Source: Elusimicrobiota bacterium | GTDB lineage: Bacteria; Elusimicrobiota; Elusimicrobia; Elusimicrobiales; UBA9959 | Direction: 5' to 3' | NCBI GenBank assembly: GCA_026388125.1 | Contig: JAPLKJ010000219.1 | Location: 1 to 49,071 of the forward strand | DNA: 49,071 nucleotides | Shown here: in pieces, positions 4,510-38,307 of the stretch | Numbering within the stretch: the stretch's first letter is position 1 | Layout of the letters: each line of letters begins with the position of its first letter | Position numbers and translations under genes: made by a program | Notes under the pieces: generated by a model | Database searches by the model: none | Told to the model about the DNA's origin: nothing | The model's input: only the letters and a program-made list of their open reading frames with translations

Positions 4510-6309
4510 ATGATACCGGAATATTTTCTTTACCTCACCCTTGTCCTCGCCTGGGCCCTTAATATTTATTTTTTCTGCCGTTTCGCCGTGCGGTGGCATA
4601 AGAGCGAGCCCTCGCCCGCCAAAGCCTGGGGCGCGCTGGCCGCGGTCTGCCTGCCGGCCCTAGCCGTCACTTTTTTCCTGGCCGCGCGCGGCGGCAGCGG
4701 CAGCGACCAGGACCTCCTCTACCTCGGCGCGAAATTCCTCCGGTCCGGCCTTAAACGCGTTTTCGAGCTCAGGGAGGTCGCGCCGCTGCTCACTGACCAG
4801 CTGACGGACGCGCTCAGCGGCGATTCGCTGCGCGCCCTCCTGTGGAAGAACCGCCTGCTTTTTTCGGCCTCCGCGTTCCTGTTCTTCGCCGGGCTGCGCC
4901 GGCTGGGCGCCGGGCTCACGGTCAGCTTTCTCGCCTCCGCTTTTCTTTTCTGGAACTTCCTGGCCCCGCTCAACGCCAACACGTTCTCCGCCACCGCCCC
5001 GAACCTGTTCATCTGGCTGCTGGCGCTGACCGCGCTGTTCGACGCGCACATGAGCGCCGATATCGGCGGCCGGCAGCTGGCCTGGCTGCTCGCCTCAGCC
5101 CTGCTCACCGCGGGCGGGCGCCCGGAATTCCTGCCGGTGAACCTGGCCCTGCTGGCCCTCTCGGCCGCGGCCAGGCCCGCGGCCTGGAAAAAATGCCTGG
5201 GCGCCCCCGCGGCCCGCTGGCTGCTGCCCGCTGCGGCGTGCGTTGCGGCGGCCTGGACCATACATTTCCACGGCCTGTCGGGCGGCGGCTCCACCCCCGC
5301 GCCCTGGGTGTTCCCGCTGAAGGGCCTGTTCTACCGGGCCGGCGCCGCGCAGGCGCCCGACGCCTATCCGCTGCAGTTCATGCGCCAGCAGCTGTATTTT
5401 TTCCTGCCGTTCGCCTACCTTTTCGCGCTGGCCGCCGCGGGCCTGCTGGCCCTGGCCGCCAATAAACCGGAGCGGTGGCGCCGGCGGGCCGCGTTGACCG
5501 CCGCGCTGCTGACGGCGGGCTACGCCTGGCTGAATTTTTCCGCCGCCCTCCGGCTCAACGCCGCGCGCAGCCCCGGCGACCTGGAGCTGGAATTCCTCTC
5601 CGGCGCGCAGCGCGCCTGGGTCCCCGGCTGCAGCATTTATTCTTCCGACGAACAGCCTGACCGCGCGGCCGTCCTGAAAAAATATTTCAGTTTCTCCGAC
5701 CTGTGCGGGAACTGCGCGGACGCCTGCCGGCCGGCTCCGGAGAACTGCGTGCTGGAATACCGGCCCCCGTCCGGCACCTCCCCCGCGCCGGCGCTGGCGA
5801 AGATGGACGCCAAGGCCATACTCGGCGTTAAGGCCGCCTGCCCGGGGGCCGGCAAGCCCGGCCAGGCGCCGCGCGCCGCCGCGTCGGAAAAGCCGACCAC
5901 CGGCTACGGGGTGTCTTACGACCCCTGGCGCGATATCGGCGCCGATATCAGGAGCGCGCGGGCGGCGGCCAAAGCCTCCGGCCGGCGCGTGCTGGTGCTG
6001 GTGGGCGGCGACTGGTGCAGCTGGTGCGCCACTATGGAGGGGCTGTTCGGCAAAAATCCCGACCTCAAAGCTTTTCTTGGCGCGCACTTCGTAAAAGTTA
6101 AGGCCTATTACAATCCTTCCGAGATGCCGCTGCCCGCGGCCCTGGCGGGCTATCCGGCCATACCCGGCTACCCGCACATCTACGTCCTTAACGCCGACGG
6201 GACCGTATTCGAATCCCGGGACACCACCACGCTCGAGAACGATTCCGGCGGCTACGACAGGGAGAAATTCTTCGCTTTCCTGAAAAAAGCCGCCCCGCCG
6301 GCGAAATAG
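4510..6309 (+). CDS. Polytopic membrane protein with C-terminal thioredoxin-like domain
   Basis: Many hydrophobic segments, then KASGRRVLVLVGGDWCSWC and GYPHIYVL (thioredoxin fold with cis-Pro loop). Confidence 0.7.
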   Translation: MIPEYFLYLTLVLAWALNIYFFCRFAVRWHKSEPSPAKAWGALAAVCLPALAVTFFLAARGGSGSDQDLLYLGAKFLRSGLKRVFELREVAPLLTDQLTDALSGDSLRALLWKNRLLFSASAFLFFAGLRRLGAGLTVSFLASAFLFWNFLAPLNANTFSATAPNLFIWLLALTALFDAHMSADIGGRQLAWLLASALLTAGGRPEFLPVNLALLALSAAARPAAWKKCLGAPAARWLLPAAACVAAAWTIHFHGLSGGGSTPAPWVFPLKGLFYRAGAAQAPDAYPLQFMRQQLYFFLPFAYLFALAAAGLLALAANKPERWRRRAALTAALLTAGYAWLNFSAALRLNAARSPGDLELEFLSGAQRAWVPGCSIYSSDEQPDRAAVLKKYFSFSDLCGNCADACRPAPENCVLEYRPPSGTSPAPALAKMDAKAILGVKAACPGAGKPGQAPRAAASEKPTTGYGVSYDPWRDIGADIRSARAAAKASGRRVLVLVGGDWCSWCATMEGLFGKNPDLKAFLGAHFVKVKAYYNPSEMPLPAALAGYPAIPGYPHIYVLNADGTVFESRDTTTLENDSGGYDREKFFAFLKKAAPPAK

Positions 6310-6401
6310 CCGGGCGGACAAGCCTCCGGCAAGTTTTGTATCATACCCTCAGCGCCGCCCGCCGTTCGCGTGACGGCCCGCGGCATAAATTTTAAAGCCA
6401 C

Positions 6402-7700
6402 ATGAAATTCCCCGGAAAAAGAAAGAACAAACATTACTTCCCGGTCACCGAGAAAGGACGCGAGAGCGCCGACCCGCATTTCCTGCAGACCGAGCCGTTC
6501 TACCTGGCGGGCATCGACCAGCTGCTGGTGGATATCGAATGCTCCGTGGAGCCTGAATTCCTGCCCCGCTACCGGCTGAAAAAAGGCGAGTCGCAGATCC
6601 TCGAGGACGGCGTCGCCGAGGCCATCTACCGGGAACTGAAGGCGGGAGGCAGGATACTGGGCGAATACGCCGGCGGCTCGGTGGGCAACACCCTGCACAA
6701 CTATTCGGTGCTGTCCGAAGAGCGCTCGGTGGCCCTCGGCGCCATCACGCGCAACATCACGGTGGGCGACTACGCCTTCAAATACATCCGCAACACCAGC
6801 GCTAAAGTGGACCTGTCCTATCTCCAGCCGTCGGACAACCCCATGGGCCGCGCCATGTGCTTCGTCACCCCCGACGGGGAACGCACCTTCGGCATCAGCA
6901 AAGGCTGCATGAACGACCTGGCCCCGGAATTCATCCCGGCGGACGTGATAGAGAAGGCCTCGGCCCTGCTTATCTCGGCCTATATCCTGCGCGACGAAGG
7001 TGCCCCTATTTTCAACTCCACGGTGAAGGCCTGCGAACTGGCCCTGAAGGCGAAGGTGCCGGTGGTGATGACGCTGGGCACCAGTTCGCTGATAGGTCCC
7101 CGGCGCGATTTTTTCCGGGATTTCATACAGAAATACGTGACCTGCGCGGCCATGAACGACCTGGAGGCGCTGGCCCTTACCGGCTTCAGCGACCCGCTGC
7201 TGGCCGCGCAGTACGTGCTGGACCTGGCCGATTTCGCGCTGCTTACCGTGGGCGCGCACGGGCTTTACCTGGCCGGGCACGTGGACGAGCAGTTCGCGAG
7301 AAGGACCACGTACAAACTGCACACCAAGTCCATAGTGGACTACAACATGTACGAGTTCAGCCGCCCGATGCGCAAAAGCGACTGCGCCAAACCTTTGAAG
7401 ATCTACACCCATATCAACCCGTTCATGGGCGGCCCGCGGGTGATAAAGAACACCAACGGCGCCGGCGACGGCGCGCTGGCGGCGCTGCTGCACGACCTCA
7501 GCGCCCGCAAGTACCACCAGGCCAAAGTGCCGAATTCGCCCAAGAACCTGATAAATTCCCTGACCTACTCTTCCCTGTCGCAGATCTCGAAATATGCCAA
7601 CCGCGTGAGTTTCGAGGTGCTGGCGCAGAACTCCCCGCGCCTGATGCGCGCCCTGCCCGAAAGGGAGGACAACCTGCAGGAAGCGTACTGGGACACCTGA
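6402..7700 (+). CDS. gsk: Inosine/guanosine kinase (PfkB family)
   Basis: N-terminus MKFPGKRKNKHYFPV, GIDQLLVDIE, NTNGAGDGALAALLHD and C-terminal LPEREDNLQEAYWD match E. coli Gsk as recalled. Confidence 0.93.
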   Translation: MKFPGKRKNKHYFPVTEKGRESADPHFLQTEPFYLAGIDQLLVDIECSVEPEFLPRYRLKKGESQILEDGVAEAIYRELKAGGRILGEYAGGSVGNTLHNYSVLSEERSVALGAITRNITVGDYAFKYIRNTSAKVDLSYLQPSDNPMGRAMCFVTPDGERTFGISKGCMNDLAPEFIPADVIEKASALLISAYILRDEGAPIFNSTVKACELALKAKVPVVMTLGTSSLIGPRRDFFRDFIQKYVTCAAMNDLEALALTGFSDPLLAAQYVLDLADFALLTVGAHGLYLAGHVDEQFARRTTYKLHTKSIVDYNMYEFSRPMRKSDCAKPLKIYTHINPFMGGPRVIKNTNGAGDGALAALLHDLSARKYHQAKVPNSPKNLINSLTYSSLSQISKYANRVSFEVLAQNSPRLMRALPEREDNLQEAYWDT

Positions 7701-24908: not shown

Positions 24909-25589
24909 TTATACGGCGCTTTTCGGTGCGGCAGCGCGCTTATGCCTGAGATACTCCACCAGCGCGGGCAGAATTGAAATAAAAACGATGGCCATGATGA
25001 CGGCCGTAAAATTGGCCCTGACCACCGGGATGTTCCCGAAGAAATAGCCGGTAGATAGCAGGATGGTCACCCAGGTAAAGCCGCCAACCACGTTGAACAT
25101 GAGGAATTTGGGATACGTCATGGCGCCCACGCCGGCCACGAACGGCGCGAACGTGCGCACTATGGGCACGTACTTGCACAGGATGATGGCCTTGCCGCCA
25201 TACTTTTCGTAGAAGTTATGCGTCTTCTGCAGGTATTCTTTTTTAAAGATGCGCGAATTCTCGTAGTGGAAGACCTTGGGGCCGATATAATTGCCCACGC
25301 CGTAATTCACGTTGTCGCCCAGGATGGCGGCAAAGACCAGCAGCGGCCAGATCTTGTGTATGTCCAGGTAGCCCAGGGCCGCGAACGTGCCCACCGCGAA
25401 CAGCAGCGAATCCCCCGGCAGAATGGGCGTTACCACCAGCCCCGTTTCGCAGAAGATGATGAGGAACAGGATAAGGTAGGTCCACGCCCCGTAATTCTGT
25501 ATTACGAGGCCGAGGTATTTGTCGAGATGGATGAAAATATTGAATGCGTAAAGAAGGAAGTTCGCCGCGTGGGCAAGGAGTTCTGTCAT
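24909..25589 (-). CDS. dedA: DedA family membrane protein
   Basis: [41 protein letters not shown]. Confidence 0.92.
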
Positions 25590-25615
25590 TTACGCATTAC
25601 CGCGGAGGAAAAATC

Positions 25616-25690
25616 TGGTGGGTGATACAGGATTTGAACCTGTGACATCTGTCGTGTGAGGACAGCGCTCTACCGCTGAGCTAATCACCC
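25616..25690 (-). tRNA. tRNA-Val (anticodon CAC), CCA encoded
   Basis: GGGTGATTAGCTCAGCGGTAGAGCGCTGTCCTCACACGACAGATGTCACAGGTTCAAATCCTGTATCACCCACCA; all four stems pair. Confidence 0.97.
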
Positions 25691-25701
25691 TTTGAATATA
25701 T

Positions 25702-25740
25702 ATTTTACAATAGTTTTTTGTGTTTTGCAGTTTTAATTTT
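25702..25740 (-). promoter_or_regulatory. Putative tRNA promoter
   Basis: On the minus strand CTGCAA-17 bp-TAAAAT with an A-rich upstream tract, 11 nt before the tRNA 5' end. Confidence 0.5.
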
Positions 25741-25747
25741 GAACCCC

Positions 25748-25771
25748 TGGTGTCCAATTTGGTGTCCAATT
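25748..25771 (+). repeat. Tandem 12-bp direct repeat, probable integrase arm-type sites
   Basis: TGGTGTCCAATT x2, between the integrase stop and the tRNA. Confidence 0.7.
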
Positions 25772-25780
25772 CCCAAAATA

Positions 25781-25807
25781 CAAGTAGAACCAAGTAGAAC
25801 GAAATAG
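25781..25807 (+). repeat. 10-bp-period array, inverted copy of 26962..26988
   Basis: CAAGTAGAAC-CAAGTAGAAC-GAAATAG; 25/27 identical to the reverse complement of 26962-26988. Confidence 0.85.
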
Positions 25808-25825
25808 CGATAAAAGGCACCGGAG

Positions 25826-26899
25826 CTATGGCTGGCATGATAGTTGACCACTATGCGTTGCCGGGGCCGCCGGCGCGCCCAGAACAGGCATCCCCGATTC
25901 GAACGCGGCCATGGCGGCGTTAATATGCGCCTTCGACAGGTGGGCATAGCGTTGCGTCATCTGCGGCGACGCGTGGCCCAACAGTTTTTGCAGGGCGTAC
26001 AGGTCCGCCGTCCTCATATAGAAGTGGCTGGCAAAAGTATGTCGAATATCATGAAACCGGAAATACGCAATGCCGGACTCCGCCTTCAACCGGTCGAACA
26101 GACGCCTGAACGTTATATGCGCTATTTCGAAAACTTTCCCCTCCGGTTTCGGCCTAGTACCTAACATTACTTCCTTCAGGCGCGGCGTGATAGGCACCTC
26201 GCGCGGCTTGCCGGACTTCGATATAAGAATGTAGATGGTGCCATGCTCAAGGTCGACGTTCTTCCAATCCAGCCTTAATATCTCGCCTTGCCGCATGCCC
26301 GTAAAGAGCGCGCAGACGACAACAGGATATAGCTTGCTGTACTCCGGCCCCTGGCACACGAGTAGTAGCCGGTCCATCTCGGCGGAACTTAGGTAACGGA
26401 GCCGGGAGGCGTTATCGGGCTGCTTCTTAATGCGCTTGGCAGGATTTTCCTTCTGAAAGTCGCCCCACTCAATGGCGCGGTTGTAGATGGCCTTTATCAA
26501 TGCCAGGTACCGGTTCGCGGTCGACGGCGTGGTCGAGACCGCTTTCTTGTTGTACCATTCCTGCCATTCTTTCGTCGTTATTTCGTCGGCCCGCCGATGG
26601 CCGAATTCGGGAATCAGGGTACCGGTTCGGTAGCTCCATGAACTATCCCTGTTGAAGCCGACAAGCCGGTAGTAGTTATCCGCCAGTTCTTTAAAAGTGC
26701 AACGCTTAACGGCGGCGATATATTTATTTTCATAAACCTCGCCCTGCACCTTAACTAGTGACCGCTTAGCCAACTTGCGCATTTCTGCGGTATCAGGCCC
26801 GATCTTCTCACGGTGGCGCTTGCCGGCCTGATCATTAAAGACTATCCATACTTCCGCCAATTTATCCGCCCGTTTTCGTATCCAGATTCCGTTTGCCAT
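25826..26899 (-). CDS. Tyrosine recombinase/integrase
   Basis: Catalytic R (TGMRQGEI), K (SKSGK), HxxR (HDIRH), H (LLGH) and Y (QRYAH); start at MANGIW after SD AGGAG/AAGGA (ORF track extends to 26932). Confidence 0.93.
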   Translation of the reverse strand: MANGIWIRKRADKLAEVWIVFNDQAGKRHREKIGPDTAEMRKLAKRSLVKVQGEVYENKYIAAVKRCTFKELADNYYRLVGFNRDSSWSYRTGTLIPEFGHRRADEITTKEWQEWYNKKAVSTTPSTANRYLALIKAIYNRAIEWGDFQKENPAKRIKKQPDNASRLRYLSSAEMDRLLLVCQGPEYSKLYPVVVCALFTGMRQGEILRLDWKNVDLEHGTIYILISKSGKPREVPITPRLKEVMLGTRPKPEGKVFEIAHITFRRLFDRLKAESGIAYFRFHDIRHTFASHFYMRTADLYALQKLLGHASPQMTQRYAHLSKAHINAAMAAFESGMPVLGAPAAPATHSGQLSCQP

Positions 26900-26962
26900 A
26901 AGTTCCTTTTCTCCTTGGACAATAGCGGACATTTACGTCGTCCGTCAAGTCCTGTTTCGCTC

Positions 26963-27095
26963 TATTTCGTGCTACTTGGTTCTATTTGGTTTTGAATCAA
27001 ATCTACCCTGTTTTGACTTTGCTGTACTTTGTTGTATTTGGTTACGACCCCGCTTCCATGCAGTTCGACTTTGTTGTATTTTGTTGTGTTTGGTT
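26963..27095 (-). repeat. Three 29-bp arrays of 10-bp units at exact 52-bp period upstream of the integrase
   Basis: On +: TATTTCGTGCTACTTGGTTCTATTTGGTT (26963-26991), GACTTTGCTGTACTTTGTTGTATTTGGTT (27015-27043), GACTTTGTTGTATTTTGTTGTGTTTGGTT (27067-27095). Confidence 0.8.
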
Positions 27096-28073
27096 CAGGA
27101 GCCATTCATCTATCGTGCTTTTCCGGAACCGGTTCAGCCGCCCCAACTTTATAACGGGTATCTTCCCCTCGCTTACCTTCGTGTATATGGTGGCAATAGC
27201 CCAGCCCAGGTACGCGGAAAGCCCCGGCACATCCATCAAGGGGTCATTTTGAACGGGGACCGGCACGGATACTGGGGTGGCCACAGGCGCGGCGGCTGCG
27301 TTAATCGGCCCGGAATCGGGGCATAGCCGCGCTTTCGCCGCGTTTACGTAGTCCGCATTCAGATCGTAGCCCACAAAGCGCCGGCCGTGCTTCTGCGCCG
27401 CCAGGAGCGTGGTGCCAGAGCCGCAGAAGGGGTCAAGAACAACATCGCCGGGCTTACTGCCGTACAGAACGAACCGCTCTGCCACGGCGTCCGGCATCTT
27501 GGCGGGGTGGATCTCTTTCTGGTCCTGGGATTTAGGGTGAATAAAATAGTTGCCCGGGTCTTTGCCAAGTTCGTTATATTTATAGGTCCGGTTATCTTTG
27601 CCCGCCCATTCGCTCGGCTCGCGGATAGCGTCCTTATAAACAATAAAATCTTTTGATTTCGCGAAGTGCCAGATAAACTCAACAGAGTTCTTCAGCACGT
27701 TCCGGGCGGGCAGGGGATTGGCGTTGGGCTTCACCCAGGTATGCGTCTGCACGTGCAGCAGACCAAGCTCTTCTACTGCCATCTTCACGATCAGGTATTC
27801 CGTGGGCGAGGTCAGCCCGTCGATTATCTGCGCCTGAAAGTTCAGGAACAGGTTTCCGCCTGGCTTCAATACGCGCTTACATTCAGCCAGTACGGCTTTC
27901 AGCTTAGTTACATATTCCAGCCCCTGGTAATTCCCAAGATCCTCCGGGTCATCAGAATAATGCCGCATGGTCTCGTAAGGGGGCGAGGTAAGAATAAGGT
28001 CCACCGACAGCGGCTCCAGTTCCGCCATCCGCGCGGACGAGCTGCAGTACACCGCATCAAAAAAGTCTTTCAT
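27042..28073 (-). CDS. Beta-class N4C/N6A DNA methyltransferase fused to a C-terminal excisionase-type HTH
   Basis: Motif IV TSPPY, HPAKMP, motif I VLDPFCGSGTT; Pro/Ala linker; LMDVPGLSAYLGWAIATIYTKVSEGKIPVIKLGRLNRFRKSTIDEWL (HTH_17/Xis-like); SD AGGAG. Confidence 0.85.
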   Translation of the reverse strand: MKDFFDAVYCSSSARMAELEPLSVDLILTSPPYETMRHYSDDPEDLGNYQGLEYVTKLKAVLAECKRVLKPGGNLFLNFQAQIIDGLTSPTEYLIVKMAVEELGLLHVQTHTWVKPNANPLPARNVLKNSVEFIWHFAKSKDFIVYKDAIREPSEWAGKDNRTYKYNELGKDPGNYFIHPKSQDQKEIHPAKMPDAVAERFVLYGSKPGDVVLDPFCGSGTTLLAAQKHGRRFVGYDLNADYVNAAKARLCPDSGPINAAAAPVATPVSVPVPVQNDPLMDVPGLSAYLGWAIATIYTKVSEGKIPVIKLGRLNRFRKSTIDEWLLNQTQQNTTKSNCMEAGS

Positions 28074-28081
28074 GGCACACT

Positions 28082-28181
28082 CCTAAAAAATATTAACCTT
28101 ACCTCAATATTTTAGGCCAGGCCATGAATAAGCGCCCGGATACAGTTCCGCGAACCGTATCCGAGTCCCGTCTGAAACGGG
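28082..28181 (-). promoter_or_regulatory. Structured leader with three hairpins, the last overlapping the SD
   Basis: Stems at 28167-28181, 28135-28165 (14 bp) and 28082-28116; the mismatches are G-U pairs only on the minus strand. Confidence 0.5.
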
Positions 28182-28193
28182 CATTTGGGGTTG

Positions 28194-29480
28194 TCAGCTT
28201 TTGGGAAGAGTTACTGGCGGGGTTTCCGGCAAATTAGAGAGGGTCATATCTCCCGTTCCGGGGAAATATTCATCCAGATAATCTGTCCAAAGCTTGTTCG
28301 TCTGTGCAGTGCTTTTCCCTATATAGAAAAGTGTATTCGCGTAGTCTAACTTTTTACCATCCATTTCCATGAGGCCCATTTGCAGGGCGGCTTCCTGAAG
28401 CGCCTTGGATGTGTTGTGACTTTCAGAAGCACGGTATTCCGCTATCTGTCCAGTGGTGAGCTCCGGATATTTCTTCTGGCACTCCAAGAGGGCTTCGTCT
28501 CTGCTTTTACCGCTGGAGCATATCCCTTGTACATCTTCACGCATATTTAAAAAAACCTGTTGCAGCCTGTAAAGCTCATCAGGATTGCCCGGCTCTAACG
28601 CTGCAGGCGCTTCATACCCCGACACGTTGGCTAACGAGATAGCGCCGAAATCGCTGACAACTCCCTTGATAACCTTCAACTTCTCTTCCTGCAAGTATTT
28701 CCCCAGTGAATTCCCCGGCCGGTTCTTTCCGGCAACCAGGCTTTTAAGCTGCTCGTTGTAATAGCTATCACCTTTCGGCCGTTCTCTTTTATAATCAACG
28801 GAAATCTGGGCCAGTCTTTCTTTTGTGATCTTTGCCGTTACCGGGTTACAGATTTTTTCCGCGATCTGCTGCTTTTTTTCATCCGACATTGTGTCTTTTA
28901 TGCCCAGTTTTTCCGGCTGCTGGTTTATACGATCAAGCAAAGCATGTTTTTGCGCTTCCGATTTGTGGAATAACGGATCTGTTGAATTTATCCCGCATTC
29001 TTCCGGTAATTCCGGGGTAGTTCTTGCCCACTTGATTAGGAACGCTTTTTCTTTGTCAACTCCATGCTTGTTTATTGCAATATTTAAGCGCTCTGACAGC
29101 TCTTTTGGGGTTAAGTCAAAAAGATGGATATATCCGGTAGGAATTTTACTGGGTTTTTCATAGAGCAAGATTTTATGTTTTCCTTTCTCCACACGGTTGA
29201 AATATTCGATGGCAGAATTGGCCGAAATCAGGCTAAAAAAACTTTCAAAGAATTTTTCTTCTGGTTTTACCTCCAGGCAGGCCGCAAAAGAACGAAAAAT
29301 CGCAAGATCAGCCGGGATTAGCCCCATCACCCCGGAAACCCACCATTCAAAGGGCCGGGAATCGCCCGTCCAGAGCTTGTTTTTTAGAACGACAATCCGT
29401 TCATGTATTTCCCTATGCAGCACCGGGAAATTTTTCTGATGTTTTTCGGCCCATCGGCGCTTCTTAACTTCGTCTCTCAT
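28194..29480 (-). CDS. Hypothetical protein (428 aa), unknown family
   Basis: Long ORF with SD GAGGA, co-oriented with MTase-Xis and the integrase; no motif recognised. Confidence 0.75.
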   Translation of the reverse strand: MRDEVKKRRWAEKHQKNFPVLHREIHERIVVLKNKLWTGDSRPFEWWVSGVMGLIPADLAIFRSFAACLEVKPEEKFFESFFSLISANSAIEYFNRVEKGKHKILLYEKPSKIPTGYIHLFDLTPKELSERLNIAINKHGVDKEKAFLIKWARTTPELPEECGINSTDPLFHKSEAQKHALLDRINQQPEKLGIKDTMSDEKKQQIAEKICNPVTAKITKERLAQISVDYKRERPKGDSYYNEQLKSLVAGKNRPGNSLGKYLQEEKLKVIKGVVSDFGAISLANVSGYEAPAALEPGNPDELYRLQQVFLNMREDVQGICSSGKSRDEALLECQKKYPELTTGQIAEYRASESHNTSKALQEAALQMGLMEMDGKKLDYANTLFYIGKSTAQTNKLWTDYLDEYFPGTGDMTLSNLPETPPVTLPKS

Positions 29481-30035
29481 AATTTTCCTCTAAACTCCGT
29501 GATAAACCCCGGCTTAAAGGATAAATCTTTTACCGGCGGCCATCAATAAGGATTTTAAAAGCCTTACAGTGGAAAATTTGAGATTTTATTACGTATTATC
29601 CGGGGAATTATTCCCGGGGCGACGAAGATAGAATAATATATCTAAAAAAAGTGGCCTGTTTTGCCCTGAACTTGTTATCTATATACCCCGAAATGTCCAT
29701 TTTTATAAACCGCGAAAGTTTTAACCCTTTTCCAGATATTTTCAATGGAAAGAATTCATCCTTACAAGGAAAATTATTACGCACTTGTCTCCAATGAAAA
29801 TAGCGATATTTTACAGCAAATAATTTTGGGGCTATGGAATGGAACCAGGAAACGAAAATAATGCCGGCTCCGGGCAGAGATTTCCCGATTTTCCCGGGGG
29901 AAAGTTCTTCACTACACGGCCCGGCACAGTCGCCACTCTGCCGGCAAGGCCGCCGTTGGCGGCAAGGCTCGCGCAAACAACTGCGGCCTTGCGGGAGAAA
30001 ATCCTTAAAAGATGTGAAAAAATCTCTAAACTCAA

Positions 30036-31664: not shown

Positions 31665-32780
31665 ATGATACAGCATAAGGCCGAATACCTTAAATTTCTT
31701 CAGGACGATCCGGCCGTAGACGACCCGTCAATAAAATCTTATGTTTCCTACCTAACAACGGTTTCCCGTTTTCTTGATAAAGACATTACTCCCGCCCTTC
31801 TTCATTCGGAAACTAATAGACAAGATATTGTTCGTCGACTTCAACTTGCAGAGAAGAACGTGCACACAATAAATAATTTAAGTTCTGCTATGCGCAAGTA
31901 TGTGAAGATGGTTCAGGTTGAAAAGTTTTACCGCCCTTTAGCAGAACCTAGCTATTGGCGTATATCTTTCCGTATTGGAAATCAGGGTGAGCGCCTTTGG
32001 TTGGATTGCCTTAAGCGGGGCGTAGCTGTCATCACTTATCCGTCTCTTCACAATATCGACCTTTCCAGATTTGATAAATATGAGCCGAAAGTTAAGTGGG
32101 CAAAACTGGCTGTGTCCCAACGTTTTAGTTTAGCAGCTATTGCGTATGAAATGAAACCAGGTGACATAATTTATGTAAAAGAAGGGCCGTTTATTGTCGC
32201 CAAAGGTTTAATAACTCGTGGATATCAATTTAATCCTAGCGTTCTACACCGGCCTGATGTGACTTGGGGACATCATGTAAAGGTAGATTGGAAATATACT
32301 TACCCCGAAGGCAGAATCAAATATGTCGGGCCCACGCAAAACACGGTCCATAAACTCACTCAGGAACAAGTGACTGGCCTAGAAGCGCAGAGTAAGAGGG
32401 TTTTTTTAGATCAAGAACATCAGGAAGATGTATTGGAAGGCCGCTTAATCGAATGCCATTCACATGCTCGTGTCAGAAATCCGAAACTCGCCCAGTTCAA
32501 AAAAACTCAATCTGATTACCGATGCGAGATTTGTGGTTTTAATTTCGAAGAGACTTATGGGAATATCGGGCGGGGATATATTCTAGTTCACCACCTAAAA
32601 CCTATTGGCAGTCGCCGGAGAGCAACAAAAACGCGATTAGAAGATCTTGTTGTTATTTGCCAGAATTGCCATGCAATGCTGCACCAACAAAGGCCCCCAT
32701 TATCTCCGGACGAACTGCATTCTCTTGTGGTTCAATTTGAAAAAGACACCAGATTAATCCCCAGTGTCGCAAAAGTCTAA
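31665..32780 (+). CDS. HNH endonuclease, McrA-like (putative type IV modification-dependent nuclease) with central EVE/PUA-like domain
   Basis: CEICGFNFEETYG...VHHLKP...ICQNCHAMLH; central YWRIS...MKPGDIIYVK...VDW; TATAAT at 31636 and SD AGGA. Confidence 0.8.
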   Translation: MIQHKAEYLKFLQDDPAVDDPSIKSYVSYLTTVSRFLDKDITPALLHSETNRQDIVRRLQLAEKNVHTINNLSSAMRKYVKMVQVEKFYRPLAEPSYWRISFRIGNQGERLWLDCLKRGVAVITYPSLHNIDLSRFDKYEPKVKWAKLAVSQRFSLAAIAYEMKPGDIIYVKEGPFIVAKGLITRGYQFNPSVLHRPDVTWGHHVKVDWKYTYPEGRIKYVGPTQNTVHKLTQEQVTGLEAQSKRVFLDQEHQEDVLEGRLIECHSHARVRNPKLAQFKKTQSDYRCEICGFNFEETYGNIGRGYILVHHLKPIGSRRRATKTRLEDLVVICQNCHAMLHQQRPPLSPDELHSLVVQFEKDTRLIPSVAKV

Positions 32781-32860
32781 ATCCTTCTTTTCCCCTCGCG
32801 TCGGGAAATTCCCCCTTCCCCTCTTCGAGTGTCGCAAAAGTAGCACTTTTGCGACACTGG
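32761..32860. repeat. 100-bp MITE-like element with 16-bp terminal inverted repeats and an internal third copy
   Basis: CCAGTGTCGCAAAAGT (32761-32776) and ACTTTTGCGACACTGG (32845-32860); third copy AGTGTCGCAAAAGT at 32828-32841. Confidence 0.7.
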
Positions 32861-33125
32861 ATGGATAGGCCTGGGAATTAAATTGATGCCCCCTATTAGT
32901 TGTCGAGCTTTCTCCAAATATATCGTTGGTCTCCGTCCAAGATTCCCCTACGAATTCGCGAATGTAGGGCGGACTTAAAGTGGGACCAGATTTCACACGT
33001 TCTCACGGACCCGTTCAAATTCAAATGTTATAGTTCCGATCTACTGAGGATTGCTGGGAATAATGCGATTATGATTTTATATCATTCCATAATAGACGGT
33101 CACCTAAAAAATGCACAAAACACTA

Positions 33126-33163
33126 TTGACAGCATGTTTGGTATGGTGCTATAATAATGCTGT
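33126..33163 (+). promoter_or_regulatory. Consensus sigma70 promoter with overlapping inverted repeat
   Basis: TTGACA (33126)-18 bp-TATAAT (33150) with extended TG; inverted heptamers ACAGCAT (33129) and ATGCTGT (33157). Confidence 0.75.
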
Positions 33164-33199
33164 TATCGGTATAGATTCATATTAGTATGGAGATTTATT

Positions 33200-33574
33200 A
33201 TGTCAGAACAGGAACTTATCACTTTAACCGACGTCGCCGAGCGGCTGCAACTTCACCCGGAAACAGTACGCAGGCTCTACCGGCATGGCAAAATCCCGGG
33301 AATTAAATTCGGGCATCGAACGTTACGTTTTGATTATGCCAAGGTGGTGGAGGCGCTCCACAAACCCGGAATAGCAATGGCGAACATACAAGGCCCCGTC
33401 CAAGTTAAGAAATCACCAGTTTCCGATCCTAAAGCAAACATAACAGTTCAGAAGAAAGTGGAAGCTCCAGCCCCGGTTAAAACTGTTAAAGCGCCCATAG
33501 ACAAACCGACAGCGGAAACAACCATAAAGCCTAGAATGATCAGTCCAATAAACATTTTACGCCGGAAAGAATAA
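33200..33574 (+). CDS. Excisionase-family HTH DNA-binding protein with Pro/Lys-rich tail
   Basis: LITLTDVAERLQLHPETVRRLYRHGKIPGIKFGHRTLRFD; SD GGAG. Confidence 0.8.
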   Translation: MSEQELITLTDVAERLQLHPETVRRLYRHGKIPGIKFGHRTLRFDYAKVVEALHKPGIAMANIQGPVQVKKSPVSDPKANITVQKKVEAPAPVKTVKAPIDKPTAETTIKPRMISPINILRRKE

Positions 33575-33773
33575 CGGAAAGGAACAAGCCGGAGGTTTTC
33601 ATACGTTATTGGGCCTGTGGGAATGCCGCTGACTGGTTGCATGCATAAGTGCAATTCTGTTGTGGGCGATTCTAGCAAAGGAGCTGGGACTCTGACCGCT
33701 TGTGGGGGCAGGCACTGTTTGGGACAGACCAAAAACAGGATGTTATTATTGCGGCATTTTGTAGAATTATTTC

Positions 33774-35654
33774 ATGGGGATAATAATTCCAGATTCCGCG
33801 CTGGCTGGCGGACCGTATAAGATCGAACCCGGAGAGAAGCTGCTGCTTAAAAAGTTCAAAGAGTCTCTCCCTGAAAACTGCCTGGTGTGGCACAATGTGG
33901 ATCTGCCGCGCCATTACCAACCCGACATCATCGCCTATATTCCCCGCCTCGGGATAATCATTATTGAAGTAAAAGACTGGCTTCCGTCGACCGTAACAAA
34001 AATAGGCAAGAACAAATGGGAACTGAGCATTGACGGCCGCCGCAAAGAAGTGACTTCCCCCCTTGAGCAGGTGAGAGGCTATTTCGTGCAGCTGAAAAAC
34101 CTGCTGGAAACGCATACCACCCTGCTTTCCCAAAGCGGAGCACGAAAAGGCTCCTTCAAACTGCCCATAAGCTATTTTGTCGCCTTCAGCAAGATCAGCC
34201 GCGCGGACCTCCCGGCGGAAGCCTCGGCATTTCTGTCCGAAGATAAATTCCTGTTCAAAGAAGACATAACCGCCATAGGCAATTCCCTGAAAGGCGCGGA
34301 CCTGGCGAAATATTTCATGCGCATTTTTGCGCAAAGCTTCTGGAAAACGGAACCGCTTTCACCCAAAGAGCTTGAAACGCTGCGCGGCGCCTTATATCCC
34401 GAAATAACGCTTACAAGAAAATCGAAGACCGGCGATAAACAGATAGTTCTGGACATAACCCAAGAGCAGTTAGCTAAAAAACTGGATTCCGGGCACCATG
34501 TTGTGCGCGGTATAGCCGGCAGCGGCAAATCCCTGGTATTATGCGCCAAGGCGAAACTGCTTGCGGAAACCAAACCGGAGTGGAAAACCCTGCTGACCTG
34601 CTTTAACACCAGTTTAAAAGCGCAGCTTGTGTTTTACATTAAAAACATGAACGATATGTTCATAACGGAGCCGGCTAGGCCCAACTGGGAAATAGCCAGT
34701 TTCTACAACCTGCTTTTTAGACTCGCCCGCGAAACAGGCTATAACGGCATCCCGGATGATTTTTTCTCGCACGGAGCGGATACGCAAAGCGACGAAGAAC
34801 AAAGTCTTAAAGCCGGCGAGCATTTACAGCAGATAGCCAAGCTACCGGGCGCTCCGAAGTTCGACGCGATATTGATAGACGAGAGCCAGGATTTTCATCA
34901 CTCCTGGCTGAAAGGCCTCATGTCGCTTTTAAATCCTGAAACTAATTTTATAATTCTGGCGGAAGACCCCAACCAAAAGATCTATAAACGCAGCTTCACC
35001 TATAAAGATGCCGGGTTAAATATCGCCGGGCACGTACGAAAACTGCCGGTTACATATCGCAGTACCAGGGAAATAGTGCTCCCCGCGTCTTTATTCGTGC
35101 AGCAGTCGAACTGCGACGAGTTTTTTAAGCAGTATGTGGGCGAAGATAATTTTGCGACGCTTTTCAGTGAGCCAGCCGGGACTCCGCCGCGGCTGGCCAT
35201 TGTTAAGGACGATAGAATTTTAAGTCATTTATTGGAAAGCATCTACCGCGATACCAAAAACGGGATGGCATATTCCGACATAGCCGTTATCTGTCCCTAT
35301 AATGAGCAAACCAGAAAAGTATCCGATTTCCTGCGGCGGGCTAAAATTCCGGCGTATTGGCTTGTAAAAGACGCCAAGGCCAAAAAGGAATACGACCTTA
35401 CCCAAGACAAAGTTGTAATAACCACGATCCATTCCGCGAAAGGCCTGGAGTTCGAGAAAGTGTACTTCCTGGGTTTTGAGGCGTTCCCTTTAGATTCCCT
35501 GGAACTAAACGACCGGGAAAACGCCTCGATGATCTACGTGGCCATGACCCGGGCAAAGAAGCAGCTTGAGATAGTAAGCACCCAGCGCACCAAAACTTTC
35601 AGCAAACTAAGTGATGTAATAGCGAAATACACGACTGCGGAGAACAAGGCCTAA
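33774..35654 (+). CDS. NERD nuclease plus SF1 (UvrD-like) helicase
   Basis: PDII...IIIEVKDW; Walker A GIAGSGKS; ILIDESQD; TYRST; TIHSAKGLEF; YVAMTRAK. Confidence 0.88.
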   Translation: MGIIIPDSALAGGPYKIEPGEKLLLKKFKESLPENCLVWHNVDLPRHYQPDIIAYIPRLGIIIIEVKDWLPSTVTKIGKNKWELSIDGRRKEVTSPLEQVRGYFVQLKNLLETHTTLLSQSGARKGSFKLPISYFVAFSKISRADLPAEASAFLSEDKFLFKEDITAIGNSLKGADLAKYFMRIFAQSFWKTEPLSPKELETLRGALYPEITLTRKSKTGDKQIVLDITQEQLAKKLDSGHHVVRGIAGSGKSLVLCAKAKLLAETKPEWKTLLTCFNTSLKAQLVFYIKNMNDMFITEPARPNWEIASFYNLLFRLARETGYNGIPDDFFSHGADTQSDEEQSLKAGEHLQQIAKLPGAPKFDAILIDESQDFHHSWLKGLMSLLNPETNFIILAEDPNQKIYKRSFTYKDAGLNIAGHVRKLPVTYRSTREIVLPASLFVQQSNCDEFFKQYVGEDNFATLFSEPAGTPPRLAIVKDDRILSHLLESIYRDTKNGMAYSDIAVICPYNEQTRKVSDFLRRAKIPAYWLVKDAKAKKEYDLTQDKVVITTIHSAKGLEFEKVYFLGFEAFPLDSLELNDRENASMIYVAMTRAKKQLEIVSTQRTKTFSKLSDVIAKYTTAENKA

Positions 35655-35708
35655 CCGACGATAGAAGCCTGCTGTTTATGCAGCTGAGCGCAAATGTCAA
35701 AAAAATAT

Positions 35709-36644
35709 TTAGACCAATGGGCCGAGAAATTTATCTCCGTTAAAGTGGATCATGTGCCCTGGAACTTCCGAAACCCAGACTTCTGTTTCCCAGGCTATAT
35801 CATTTGCGTACCGTTTAAATTCCCTGAAATCCGGGAACGCGCTCACATAAATTCTGGTGGCGGGACATTTCGCAAGAATTTCTTCCAGCTCCATGTGCCG
35901 CTTTGGCGAAACCGGGCCATGCGCCGTAACCGCTTCGATCAAGAACAAATAATTCCTCGCCCTGTCGTAGAGGACAACATCGGGAAGCTTGTCGTGCTTG
36001 GTTATCGGAATGCCGAGAGCTTCTAACTCCTCTTTTTCCATGTGCAGAAGCTTATGGGCGGTGTCGCCCATATAAAGCAAACTCGCATCCGGGCAGAATC
36101 TTGCTTTAAACTCCTCGAAGATTTTAATCTGCAGTTTGTTGTGCTTTCCGGGTGATAAAGTTATGGTTTTATCTCCGCTTATGGGAAGGGCTAAGGTGTT
36201 GCTGGTTTTTACTTTTTGATACTTATCGACAAGCCGCCCCTGGGCCGCGATAAAACCACGCAGAGCTTCCTCCCATTGGGGAGTGCCGTACGTTGAAATA
36301 GTCGCTAATGCCTGCGGTGAGATGTTATAGACGTTATTCGGGCTGTTAGTCGGGCGCGTGGGATCATCGGAATTCCTTTCCGCAATCCCGGCCTGTTCAA
36401 ATTGGTGCAGAGTCTGGCGGCGTATCGTTTCGCGGGTGTTCTCGGCGTAGGTCTTGTTGTATTTGGCTTTTACGAATTTCAGAACGTCATGGACACGGAT
36501 TAAACCAGTCTTTGCGTCCTTCCATTCGCTCCGGGGCGAAAGATCGAGCAGCGCCAGCAACGTCAGGGCCGAGCGGTCATTTTGCTGCGCACGCGGGAGC
36601 CCCAAGTCTTTTAGGATCAGTGTTGCCTGTTTTATCTTGTTCAT
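35709..36644 (-). CDS. BsuBI/PstI-family type II restriction endonuclease
   Basis: LGLPRAQQNDRSALTLLALL, YAENTRETIRRQTLHQF, LSPGKHNKL, KLPDVV, EAVTAHGP, IAWETEVW, HMIHFNG. Confidence 0.92.
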   Translation of the reverse strand: MNKIKQATLILKDLGLPRAQQNDRSALTLLALLDLSPRSEWKDAKTGLIRVHDVLKFVKAKYNKTYAENTRETIRRQTLHQFEQAGIAERNSDDPTRPTNSPNNVYNISPQALATISTYGTPQWEEALRGFIAAQGRLVDKYQKVKTSNTLALPISGDKTITLSPGKHNKLQIKIFEEFKARFCPDASLLYMGDTAHKLLHMEKEELEALGIPITKHDKLPDVVLYDRARNYLFLIEAVTAHGPVSPKRHMELEEILAKCPATRIYVSAFPDFREFKRYANDIAWETEVWVSEVPGHMIHFNGDKFLGPLV

Positions 36645-38307
36645 TGTCGTCCTTTAGGTTCAGCAAATTGACGGGGATATCCAGGATTTTCGCCACCAGA
36701 AGATCAAGCTTTTTCCCCGGCAGGCATTTCCGCATGCGCACCTGCCGGCCTATCTCTTTGAGTCTCGCCAGCGGTGGCAAAGGCAATGCCCGCAAGTCTC
36801 CCGCATTAACCTGGGTGTTCCCGTTAATACTCCTAAAGAAGCAATCGACAATGGAAGTGTTAAGGAATGCCGCTATACCAAAAGCCTCCTCGGCGGGGAT
36901 ATCGCTGTTTTTCTTGTGGATATAGTTCAGGTGGTTCTCTATGCCTATATATTTGCCCTTAATATCGTTTCCAAGCAGGACACCCGCATATAAGCGGCGC
37001 TGCTGTTCTTTTGACGTGAACCTTTTTAAGAGAATGTAGTTTTTTGCGGGCAGCAGGATATTCTTTGTCCGGCCGCTGGTGGTAATATATTTTTCTTTGC
37101 CCGCCCTGTCTAAAGGCCAGCGGACATCAAGCCCCTGTATGTTATGCATCCATAGGAGCGGAGTAAGTTTTTCTTTGGCATCTGGCGCGTTGAAAAGGTA
37201 TTCTTTTGCCCGGAACGCCACTACGGGACCCGTAGAAACCGACATCCCCAGGCTCTGAAAGGTTAAATTCCATTTTTGGAGGATTTTGCCGATAGCAAGC
37301 TCTTCTTTGTTCGCCGGTATCTTAATGAAAGCATCCTCATGGTGGAAAATATCCGCGTAGGGGAATTTCCCCTCCGTAAGGTCTGAGAAAGTAGAGTCAT
37401 TACTCTGGGAAACAGTGACTTCCTGGTTGGGCGTGAAGGGCGTAATGTTCCGCACCTTGATGATTATGCTTTCCTGAAGGATGTCTTCGTTATAAAAAAC
37501 ATTCTTCCTTGAATCAAAATTATGGATATTTTCGATGGAGTAGCGGTCTATTAACCACTTCCGGAACTTCATATGGTAAAGCCCCGAGCAGAAACTTCTG
37601 GGGGTGATAAACACAAGCTGGCCCTTTGGTTTCAGCAAGAGCAGGGATAATATCATGAAAAAGACGTAGATATTGGGTTGGCCGGAGGTAAAATCTTTCA
37701 AAAGTATCGTTTCGGGCGAGTCGGCGTTCAGTTTAAAGTACGGAGGATTTGAAACGATATAATCATACCGGTCTTTCGCGGGATCAGCCTCAAGAAACAT
37801 TTGGGACCGGGCCACGTTTAGATTGGCCAGGATAAAATCGGCATTGATGATCTTGTAGGTTAAATCCCAGCCTCGGTCTTTGAATTTAAGATGGCAGGCG
37901 GCTATGGTCTTTTTCAGGAAAGGAAGCACTTCCCCGTCCTTCTCGTATAAATCAATATGGAGGATTACTTTCTTGTAGTTGTTAGCCAGGACGGCGTTGC
38001 AAAAGCCCGCGGTCAGTATTCCCGCTCCCGCTCCAGGGTCCAGCAATGAGATTTTAATGGAAGGTGTTTTAGGAAGCGAGAAAAGGCCGGACATGAAATT
38101 GGAGATTTCCGGCGGCGTAAAAAATTGCCCCTTCTCTTTGCGTCCGTCGGGCGATTTAAGGATGTATGCTTCGGCGTGTGAATTAGCCAGGGAAGTTAAA
38201 GTAATGTCATTGATGAATCTTTCGCGCATTTCATTTTCCTGATACTCTATTTTATCACATACAGAAAAGGTTGGGCCGTTTATTAACGACAAAAATATTT
38301 CTCCCAT
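36577..38307 (-). CDS. Cognate N6-adenine DNA methyltransferase (BsuBI/PstI, gamma class)
   Basis: GQFFTP, LDPGAGAG, NPPY, FITPRSFCSG, VSTGPVV, ENHLNY, NGNTQVNA; start may instead be 38229. Confidence 0.9.
   Translation of the reverse strand: MGEIFLSLINGPTFSVCDKIEYQENEMRERFINDITLTSLANSHAEAYILKSPDGRKEKGQFFTPPEISNFMSGLFSLPKTPSIKISLLDPGAGAGILTAGFCNAVLANNYKKVILHIDLYEKDGEVLPFLKKTIAACHLKFKDRGWDLTYKIINADFILANLNVARSQMFLEADPAKDRYDYIVSNPPYFKLNADSPETILLKDFTSGQPNIYVFFMILSLLLLKPKGQLVFITPRSFCSGLYHMKFRKWLIDRYSIENIHNFDSRKNVFYNEDILQESIIIKVRNITPFTPNQEVTVSQSNDSTFSDLTEGKFPYADIFHHEDAFIKIPANKEELAIGKILQKWNLTFQSLGMSVSTGPVVAFRAKEYLFNAPDAKEKLTPLLWMHNIQGLDVRWPLDRAGKEKYITTSGRTKNILLPAKNYILLKRFTSKEQQRRLYAGVLLGNDIKGKYIGIENHLNYIHKKNSDIPAEEAFGIAAFLNTSIVDCFFRSINGNTQVNAGDLRALPLPPLARLKEIGRQVRMRKCLPGKKLDLLVAKILDIPVNLLNLKDDNEQDKTGNTDPKRLGAPACAAK

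Follow-up and report, generated by a model that had tools for sequence, protein, structure and literature searches.

The stretch of DNA analysed here, referred to as the window, comprises the 49,071 nt of contig JAPLKJ010000219.1 from an Elusimicrobiota bacterium (assembly GCA_026388125.1). At about 25.7 kb its G+C content drops from about 0.62 to 0.36-0.55 and remains low through to the contig end, and the genes that follow this border belong to an integrative island inserted at a tRNA-Val gene. On the minus strand, these include a tyrosine integrase gene (int; 25826..26899) and, directly upstream of it, a gene of 343 codons (27042..28073, stop codon at 27042-27044) that joins a DNA methyltransferase to a C-terminal winged helix-turn-helix (HTH) domain of the excisionase/MerR type. 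A sequence-only reading had singled out this gene, proposing that it stands where a free-standing excisionase gene (xis) would be found and that the fusion could either deliver methylation to the attachment (att) and int promoter region or make the methyltransferase autoregulatory. The follow-up analysis described here indicates that the fusion is real and rare, that the island was recently mobile and that phased short repeats mark both the int promoter and the att arms; an Xis-like role for the winged helix is our favoured, albeit tentative, reading.

The fusion gene, its domains and its neighbours

The fusion gene is preceded by an AGGAG motif 6 nt ahead of its ATG at 28073 and encodes, in this order, a beta-class N6_N4 DNA methyltransferase, a disordered Pro/Ala linker and the winged HTH. 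An AlphaFold2 model built on a 21-sequence alignment gave a confident methylase domain and a compact C-terminal domain of beta-alpha-alpha-beta-beta-alpha topology, so that the open reading frame (ORF), the Pfam matches and the model all agree with the single continuous methyltransferase-linker-HTH frame, including its SPPY and DPFCGSGTT motifs, that had been read from the sequence alone. Between the two domains lies the Pro/Ala-rich linker DSGPINAAAAPVATPVSVPVPVQND (residues 253-277; 27243..27317, minus strand), assigned from its sequence, from the alignment, in which the homologs' linkers differ in both length and sequence, and from the predicted local distance difference test (pLDDT), which falls below 50 at residues 257-277. 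An internal ATG at 27236, for which no Shine-Dalgarno sequence had been evident, has no purine-rich stretch ahead of it as judged by eye and aligns with the L/M of a K-x-W-[LM] motif in the homologs, i.e. it is not a conserved start.

The methyltransferase domain (residues 24-247; 27333..28004, minus strand) matches Pfam N6_N4_Mtase (PF01555) with 161.1 bits versus a cutoff of 26.7 and covers positions 1-220 of the 221-position profile. Its motif IV, SPPY (residues 30-33), lies N-terminal of motif I, DPFCGSGTT (residues 214-222), which is the permutation of the beta class; the order of motif IV before the S-adenosylmethionine-binding motif I is described as characteristic of beta methylases (PMC10406627). 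S30, P32, D214, G218, G220 and T222 are invariant across the 21 aligned sequences. When the catalytic domain was compared with known structures by Foldseek, N4CMT (8s9m, E 1.6e-18) and M.PvuII (1boo, E 3.5e-18) came out on top, and matches to N4CMT, M.PvuII, M.BceJIV, M.RsrI, M.MboIIA and CcrM all had a probability of 1.00 with E values from 1.6e-18 to 5.7e-17. The protein is nevertheless no CcrM equivalog, scoring 70.5 bits on NCBIfam NF050803 versus a cutoff of 830. Because SPPY is described as common to most bacterial N4-cytosine methylases (PMC8885841), a tendency and not proof, and because N4CMT and M.PvuII are the best folds, the enzyme is probably specific for N4-cytosine (m4C). By analogy with its solved relatives, it is probably also dimeric.

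The C-terminal domain (residues 281-328; 27090..27233, minus strand) passes both relevant family cutoffs narrowly: Pfam HTH_17 (PF12728) gives 29.1 bits, barely above its cutoff of 27, and NCBIfam TIGR01764 ('excisionase family DNA-binding') 30.3 versus 28.8. Relatives of the fusion score 29.7-56.3 bits on HTH_17, and residues 265-335 of the window protein hit PHROG 66 ('excisionase and transcriptional regulator') at 7.6e-07. The two profiles that the sequence-only reading had suggested running, N6_N4_Mtase and HTH_17, are thus both above the Pfam cutoff, the second only just. Modelled alone, the domain reached a pLDDT of 79.7 and showed the order beta strand, helix, helix, beta-hairpin wing, helix. 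With VIA-align, where the Z values are middling for such a small domain and by the tool's own scale, the top match was the 72-residue chain of 6hn7 (Z 8.5), followed by RdfS (Z 7.5; root-mean-square deviation (rmsd) 2.1 over 58 residues), the GIsul2 Xis (Z 7.2, rmsd 2.0 over 55), BldC (Z 7.0), P2 Cox (Z 6.5), the Pukovnik Xis (Z 6.3, rmsd 2.3 over 52) and the Xis proteins of Tn916 and lambda (Z 5.0-5.2); Foldseek placed the model's matches at E 0.025-0.44 with probabilities of 0.8-1.0. The best structural neighbours are all excisionases or MerR-type winged-helix relatives, and CcrM (6pbd) is absent among the listed fold matches. It is the profile matches and the predicted structure taken together that carry the fold assignment, and with them the roughly 50-residue Xis/HTH_17-like C-terminus proposed beforehand stands. 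Conserved residues of the domain in the alignment are K277, Y288, T295, P306, R315, D322 and W324. A word-based search with the window HTH (residues 271-343) returned only the protein itself. Among the sequences closest to the fused HTH are proteins built of 3-8 tandem HTH_17 domains (P0121, P0122, P0124, P0127, P0132, P0141 and P0142); Pfam counts five copies in P0121 and eight in P0132.

The fusion recurs well beyond the window. Among the 120 best homologs listed, 21 combine PF01555 with PF12728 (37-77% identity, window protein included), and all of these rank in the top 32. A profile search for the HTH domain in longer proteins gave 32 matches, of which 30 carry PF01555, i.e. where the fused HTH subfamily sits in a longer protein its partner is nearly always this methylase; 11 of the matches were new clusters, bringing the fusion to about 32 protein clusters overall. 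One fused cluster bears the Joint Genome Institute (JGI) label 'DNA modification methylase/predicted DNA-binding transcriptional regulator AlpA'. The same continuous fused ORF is found at seven genome loci and one metagenome locus. In addition, a contig from sequencing run X1, possibly the source sample, spans 25667-28300 including the methylase/HTH junction, and one from run X2, a second sample of the same study, spans 26913-27368 including the junction; neither shows any differences or indels relative to the window.

These data bear directly on the trivial explanation that an assembly error or frameshift joined separate methylase and xis genes. Two records could be taken in its favour. P0129 is a 72-aa record that starts precisely at the HTH domain, and the distant viral contig L098 (28% identity, 5950-6982) carries a 258-aa methylase and, in a different frame, a 103-aa HTH_17 ORF that overlaps it by 56 nt, with a SNF2-type helicase next and no adjoining integrase. 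The arrangement in L098 could be either a split form or a frameshift. When P0129 was used as a query, however, the only locus found (L152) again carried the fused form. As the fusion recurs in so many clusters and assemblies, the run contigs are intact at the junction and P0129 leads back to a fused gene, we reject the artefact, which we consider very improbable.

The fusion is also rare. A hidden Markov model (HMM) of the fused HTH subfamily located the domain inside the methylase ORF only in L001-L007 of 145 methylase loci, with weak matches elsewhere in the locus for L024, L026 and L086. None of the 938 matching phage records and none of the 2417 matching plasmid records in the collections searched covers at least 80% of the fusion, the matches ending near residue 250, and the gene was found in none of 30 relatives searched at E <= 1e-20. 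A full-text literature search yielded no described fusion of a methylase with an excisionase or other recombination directionality factor (RDF), in keeping with the earlier statement that no characterised example was known.

What the fused genes share is their neighbour. In the window, the tyrosine integrase gene (25826..26899, minus strand; longest ORF 25826..26932) is supported by Phage_integrase (2.3e-30), Int_N and PHROG 1 integrase (3.1e-70) matches, and translation probably begins at the ATG at 26899, the resulting MANGIW start being conserved in seven of seven aligned integrases. A homologous tyrosine integrase follows the fusion directly and on the same strand at nine of nine loci (the window, L001-L007 and L152), although these loci come from one clade and hence are not independent. 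The integrases of L001-L007, mostly Elusimicrobia metagenome genomes, are 37-77% identical to that of the window, while the L152 integrase was judged by eye from shared motifs. The gap between the fusion stop codon and int is as short as 3 nt in L002 and 9 nt in L003, and no ORF of at least 40 aa with an HTH lies between the two genes in the window. The fusion therefore does occupy the usual place of xis, and the search for the same architecture beside tyrosine integrases that had been recommended found it at every locus examined. Downstream of int, a tRNA gene is present in the window and at four of the seven loci L001-L007 (Val in L001 and L007, Arg in L005 and L006), with its 5′ end toward int in every case.

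No restriction enzyme partner was recognised beside the fusion gene, either in the window by Pfam, NCBIfam, PHROG or PADLOC or among the neighbours in L001-L007, though an unrecognised nuclease is possible; with no adjacent nuclease recognised, a classical type II restriction-modification (R-M) pair was rejected. Around the fusion in L001-L007 lie replication-type and HTH proteins as well as others that match no family. In the window, the product of the gene directly upstream of the fusion (28194..29480, minus strand) is 428 aa long; none of the four libraries assigns it to a family and the protein atlas gave no usable match, but tblastn detects it in the same position in L001-L003 at 31-40% identity, so that the module may have a third member in this gene. 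Otherwise the upstream genes vary: L005 has a D5-type primase-helicase, L006 a Prim-Pol, and L004 an AAA_25 protein plus a second methylase. In gene content, the fusion-bearing elements look like small P4-like or satellite-like integrative elements.

The island, its att sites and the repeats at the int promoter

The tRNA-Val (CAC) gene at 25616..25690 (minus strand, ARAGORN) has its 5′ end facing the island and was rebuilt by the insertion. The attL core, a 60-nt direct repeat at 25654..25713, consists of the 5′ half of this tRNA (positions 1-37) and 23 nt upstream, and a 97%-identical copy at 5597-5656 of contig C147 (genome G000), which there separates low-G+C from high-G+C DNA, represents attR. 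The contigs of the sequencing runs break at this repeat. In the same-genus relative G012, the empty attB is preserved (L157 2246-2309): a single copy joins the window's left flank to the right flank of C147, and the G012 flanks are about 95% identical to those of the window element. With both of its att sites mapped and the unoccupied attB present in this relative, the element is a genuine integrative island of recent mobility that spans from 25714 through the window end to C147:5596, i.e. at least 29 kb. The island duplicates the tRNA-Val 5′ half plus 23 nt on the 5′ side of the intact tRNA, and the element therefore supplies a tRNA 5′ half together with part of its promoter. Elements that target tRNA genes normally replace the 3′ part of the tRNA.

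Between the fusion gene and int lies an array of 10-bp units, here called type i, with the pattern A[CG]A[AG]C.AA[AG]T (26950..27095, minus strand; direct repeat family D1). The array is built from three 42-nt blocks, A-C, with a period of 52 nt, each of which opens with AACCAAA and contains three 10-bp units; on the gene strand, the blocks start at 27095, 27043 and 26991, and the start-to-start spacing within D1 is 10, 42, 10, 42 and 10. The exact type-i pattern occurs nine times in the 49-kb window, seven of them in the array or its inverted copy, and none of 100 shuffles reached nine. Block A is located within the last codons of the fusion gene and encodes its poorly conserved, low-confidence C-terminal tail. 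A single nucleotide separates the end of block C from the TTGACG of a sigma-70-like int promoter, TTGACG-18 nt-TATTGT (26919..26948, minus strand). This is the sole promoter-like site on the strand of the genes in 25500-29700, where just one other was predicted.

This layout is retained among relatives in which int has its own promoter. TTGAC ... GTCCGCTATTGTCC is kept before int in L001, L004, L005, L006 (here GCCCGCTATTGTCC) and L007, and by eye the same five loci have two or three phased short repeats in the fusion's 3′ tail before TTGAC; a 7-mer repeat count flagged only L005 and L007 among them. In L005 (~6320-6340) and L007 (~1185-1195), the fusion stop codon even falls inside the TTGAC -35 hexamer, as judged by eye, and since phased repeats encode the variable C-terminal tail, the control region here is at the same time coding sequence. 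By the 7-mer count, no such array is present in L002 and L003, where int is translationally coupled.

Both arms of the att sites carry repeats as well. In the P arm, between the int stop codon and the tRNA, an inverted type-i block (25776..25814, plus strand; inverted repeat I1) extends over 39 nt with 82% complementarity to 26955-26993, including a 23-nt match, and the P′ arm on C147 also bears type-i units, among them ATACAACAAAGTCGAA, which is identical to part of block A. A second repeat, type ii, forms a tandem in the P arm (ATTGGACACCA x2; 25748..25773, minus strand; direct repeat D7). Its form ATTGGACACCAAATTGGACAC occurs exactly twice in the 3.47-Mb genome, once per arm, the P′ arm copy of this 21-mer lying at C147 5460-5480, and an identical copy of the type-ii 26-mer adjoins tRNA-Val in L001. 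The type-ii tandem is a natural candidate for the arm sites of the integrase (Int), which would leave type i for the HTH. At the promoter and in both arms there are thus candidate sites of the short phased type that had been anticipated from what Xis proteins bind.

The upstream side of the fusion gene looks different. Its upstream region (28074-28193) contains no type-i unit, even with one mismatch allowed, and autoregulation through type-i units at the fusion's own promoter was therefore rejected; the suggestion that the methyltransferase might be autoregulatory accordingly finds no site in its favour. Located between the 428-aa gene and the fusion gene is a 27-nt imperfect palindrome, CGGATACGGTTCGCGGAACTGTATCCG (28137-28163), preceded by a short hairpin CCCGT..ACGGG; the palindrome could be an operator or a transcript-end structure.

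It is here that a different kind of control has to be considered, in which the HTH would play the controller part known from M.SsoII and M.Ecl18kI and the methylase would repress or time its own operon, i.e. the 428-aa gene, the methylase and, by read-through, int, outside of recombination. In these two enzymes, a separate DNA-binding region is described to regulate transcription (PMC3978073, PMC2760811), and the genetic layout would allow for a similar arrangement: no terminator-like site was found between the fusion gene and int, the spacing in L002 and L003 implies a single operon, and the palindrome lies upstream of the fusion. Yet, the absence of type-i units from this upstream region argues against such a role, as does the lack of a recognised adjacent restriction enzyme, which removes the usual reason for control of this kind. 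Furthermore, excisionase-type HTH domains usually bind direct repeats rather than palindromes, and the regulatory region of the SsoII type is N-terminal and attached to C5 methylases. We therefore regard a controller function as unlikely.

Beyond the integration module, the island's cargo is rich in defence genes (31665-38307). It comprises an HNH protein (31665-32780), a NERD-UvrD helicase (33774-35654; PADLOC C3a187, 7.4e-73) immediately preceded by a standalone HTH_17 gene (33200-33574), and an R-M pair of the BsuBI/PstI type with its restriction enzyme (35709-36644) and methylase (36577-38307). At the far end of the island (C147 1272-3110, L155), a ParA-like ATPase (AAA_31) is followed by a 228-aa RelA/SpoT-domain protein, which may be a small alarmone-synthetase-type toxin or defence gene. 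Host NUDIX and RNase T genes lie beyond attR.

Possible roles of the winged helix

The architecture, its conservation, the linkage to int, the mapped att sites and the ordered repeats are observations. Our favoured reading of them, to which we assign a probability of roughly 40%, is that the element uses the HTH as its Xis/AlpA-like factor, which would act on the type-i arrays while tethered to an orphan methylase. In this scenario, the protein would be bifunctional: the methylase, putatively m4C-specific and dimeric, would methylate island and host DNA, and a flexible linker of about 25 residues would tie it to a winged HTH of the Xis/AlpA/RdfS type. The HTH, rather than Int, would occupy the phased 10-bp type-i units in a cooperative, head-to-tail fashion, its targets being the three blocks abutting the int -35 element and the inverted blocks in both att arms. 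Bound there, it would control the transcription of int, the direction in which Int recombines, or both, thereby replacing a free-standing xis gene. The fusion gene itself belongs to the backbone of a family of integrative islands that target tRNA genes and have so far turned up mainly in metagenome genomes of the Elusimicrobia type.

What favours this reading is the form of the array, since three-unit blocks of 10-bp repeats, phased with the helical turn and abutting the -35 element, fit binding by a winged-helix RDF. Such RDFs bind tandem direct repeats cooperatively, and three Xis monomers form a micronucleoprotein filament. The three 10-bp units per block recall this arrangement, for which the title of PDB entry 2ief speaks of a cooperative Xis-DNA 'micronucleoprotein filament'. 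Likewise, RdfS, one of the closest fold neighbours of the HTH, is described to bind both attP and a promoter and to coordinate rdfS/intS expression with excision (PMC11963761). Of the interpretation offered by the sequence-only reading, the conserved architecture, the xis position, the winged-HTH fold and the phased repeats hold up, while the autoregulatory variant lacks a site.

A number of observations weigh against an Xis-like role, and most of them lend themselves to a competing explanation that we consider possible and only somewhat less probable. Here, the HTH would be an accessory DNA-binding module that anchors or orients the methylase and has no part in recombination, the adjacency to int would merely reflect a shared backbone, and the type-i units would be Int arm or operator sites. 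An accessory module of this kind has a parallel in CcrM, likewise of the beta class, whose C-terminal addition is described to bind the non-target strand (PMC10406627). Within the methylase family itself, a sister clade from Myxococcota (P0018, P0019, P0021, P0025 and P0026; 42-45% identity, loci L008-L013) carries a Pro-rich linker and a small zinc ribbon (CxxC ... CSxxCR) instead of the HTH, and P0025 carries the JGI label 'predicted nucleic acid-binding Zn ribbon protein'. Extra DNA-binding modules at the C-terminus may therefore be general in this family. A thiolase gene lies near the methylase in four of the L008-L013 loci. L098, moreover, has methylase and HTH_17 ORF side by side with no integrase adjoining them. 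It is just as conceivable that Int itself uses the type-i repeats as arm-type sites: a conserved region at its N-terminus (MANGIWIRKR ... GKRHREK), which we take to resemble arm-binding domains, may bind the type-i units and leave the HTH to act elsewhere.

There are further counterarguments. The standalone HTH_17 genes in the window (33200-33574), L002, L003 and L006 could be the real Xis/AlpA, and the synteny with int, drawn from a single clade, counts for less than nine independent cases would. The window HTH has marginal Pfam and TIGRFAM scores and is the most divergent of its family: relative to the closest homolog, P0002, 27 of 50 residues are identical in the HTH as compared to 217 of 250 in the methylase part. 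This divergence could indicate co-evolution with element-specific sites or relaxed constraint. Finally, the evidence is based on sequence and models throughout.

Against the accessory module stands the close homolog P0014 (272 aa, 52% identity), which has no C-terminal domain at all and so implies that the catalytic core needs no such module; its existence also counts among the points against the Xis-like role. In addition, an integrase is found beside the HTH form at nine of nine loci, but no integrase match was obtained in any of the six loci of HTH-less forms (L008-L013), the fold neighbours of the HTH are sequence-reading excisionases and regulators without CcrM 6pbd among the listed rows, and the HTH evolves far faster than the catalytic domain, as would be expected of a module that provides specificity for the element's own sites.

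There is also a stronger version of the favoured reading, which is close to what had been proposed from the sequence alone but which we think improbable. The HTH might serve as a tether that parks the dimeric m4C methylase on the int promoter repeats and the att arms, such that a local methyl mark, in addition to occupancy by the protein, would decide on Int production and excision. If true, this would amount to a self-contained epigenetic excision switch on a mobile element and to an RDF with 'writer' activity.

The conserved covalent union of methylase and HTH beside the integrase of a mapped island would tie DNA methylation physically to how integration and excision are controlled. Should the HTH prove to be a directionality factor, the fusion would constitute a new form of RDF as well as a natural sequence-targeted DNA methylase; if it is a mere anchor, the fusion would, together with the zinc-ribbon clade, illustrate a methylase family that swaps its C-terminal DNA-binding modules. 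In either case, the system is small and well defined, consisting of att sites, a promoter, repeats and two proteins, and lends itself to easy testing in E. coli.

Comparison with known systems

Each half of the fusion is known on its own, as are methylases with a second DNA-binding region such as M.SsoII/M.Ecl18kI and CcrM. What our literature search did not find described is the combination of a beta-class amino-methylase with an excisionase-type winged helix, upstream of a tyrosine integrase in islands that target the 5′ half of a tRNA. Orphan methylases on mobile elements are usually viewed as anti-restriction or regulatory proteins, whereas excisionases are normally tiny and free-standing.

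Among methylases, M.SsoII and M.Ecl18kI resemble the fusion in that a flexibly linked DNA-binding region is described to act away from the methylation site (PMC3978073, PMC2760811). However, they are C5-cytosine enzymes of R-M systems with an N-terminal region, while the fusion is a beta-class amino-methylase with a C-terminal excisionase-type domain, an integrase neighbour and no recognised restriction partner. CcrM shares the catalytic fold and motif order (6pbd, Foldseek E 3.3e-17) as well as a C-terminal addition described as DNA-binding (PMC10406627), but it is an N6-adenine chromosomal cell-cycle enzyme with DPPY in place of SPPY. M.PvuII and the rotifer N4CMT provide the best catalytic-domain folds and have a motif IV of the SPPY/SPPF type; they lack an HTH tail, and the target sequences of both are known.

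An association between an HTH_17-type domain and a DNA methyltransferase is also found in MADS, described as an operon of eight genes (PMC13662399), in the form of MAD1 and MAD2. NCBIfam MAD1 matches residues 277-325 of the fusion, but MAD1 is a separate small protein, the fusion's score of 41 stays below the cutoff of 80, and the similarity to MAD2 is weak (5.1e-15) and covers the SAM-binding part only. With MAD1 below its cutoff, the other operon genes not adjacent and generic mad2/mad3 matches only elsewhere in the island, membership in MADS was rejected. A functional precedent comes from the intA promoter of a Salmonella prophage, where methylation is described to set the integration state (PMC12455584); in that case, the enzyme is the unfused host Dam, which places N6-methyladenine (6mA) at GATC.

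A close likeness exists to the winged-HTH RDFs and their relatives, namely RdfS of ICEMlSymR7A, the Xis proteins of lambda and Pukovnik, the GIsul2 excisionase, TorI, P2 Cox and AlpA. The fused domain has their winged-HTH fold and matches HTH_17 and TIGR01764, its gene stands directly before that of a tyrosine integrase, and phased repeats mark the int promoter and the att arms, which recalls the binding to attP and a promoter described for RdfS (PMC11963761). All of them are, however, free-standing proteins of 50-100 aa, whereas in the Elusimicrobiota island the corresponding domain, with its putative role in directionality, forms the tail of a 343-aa enzyme.

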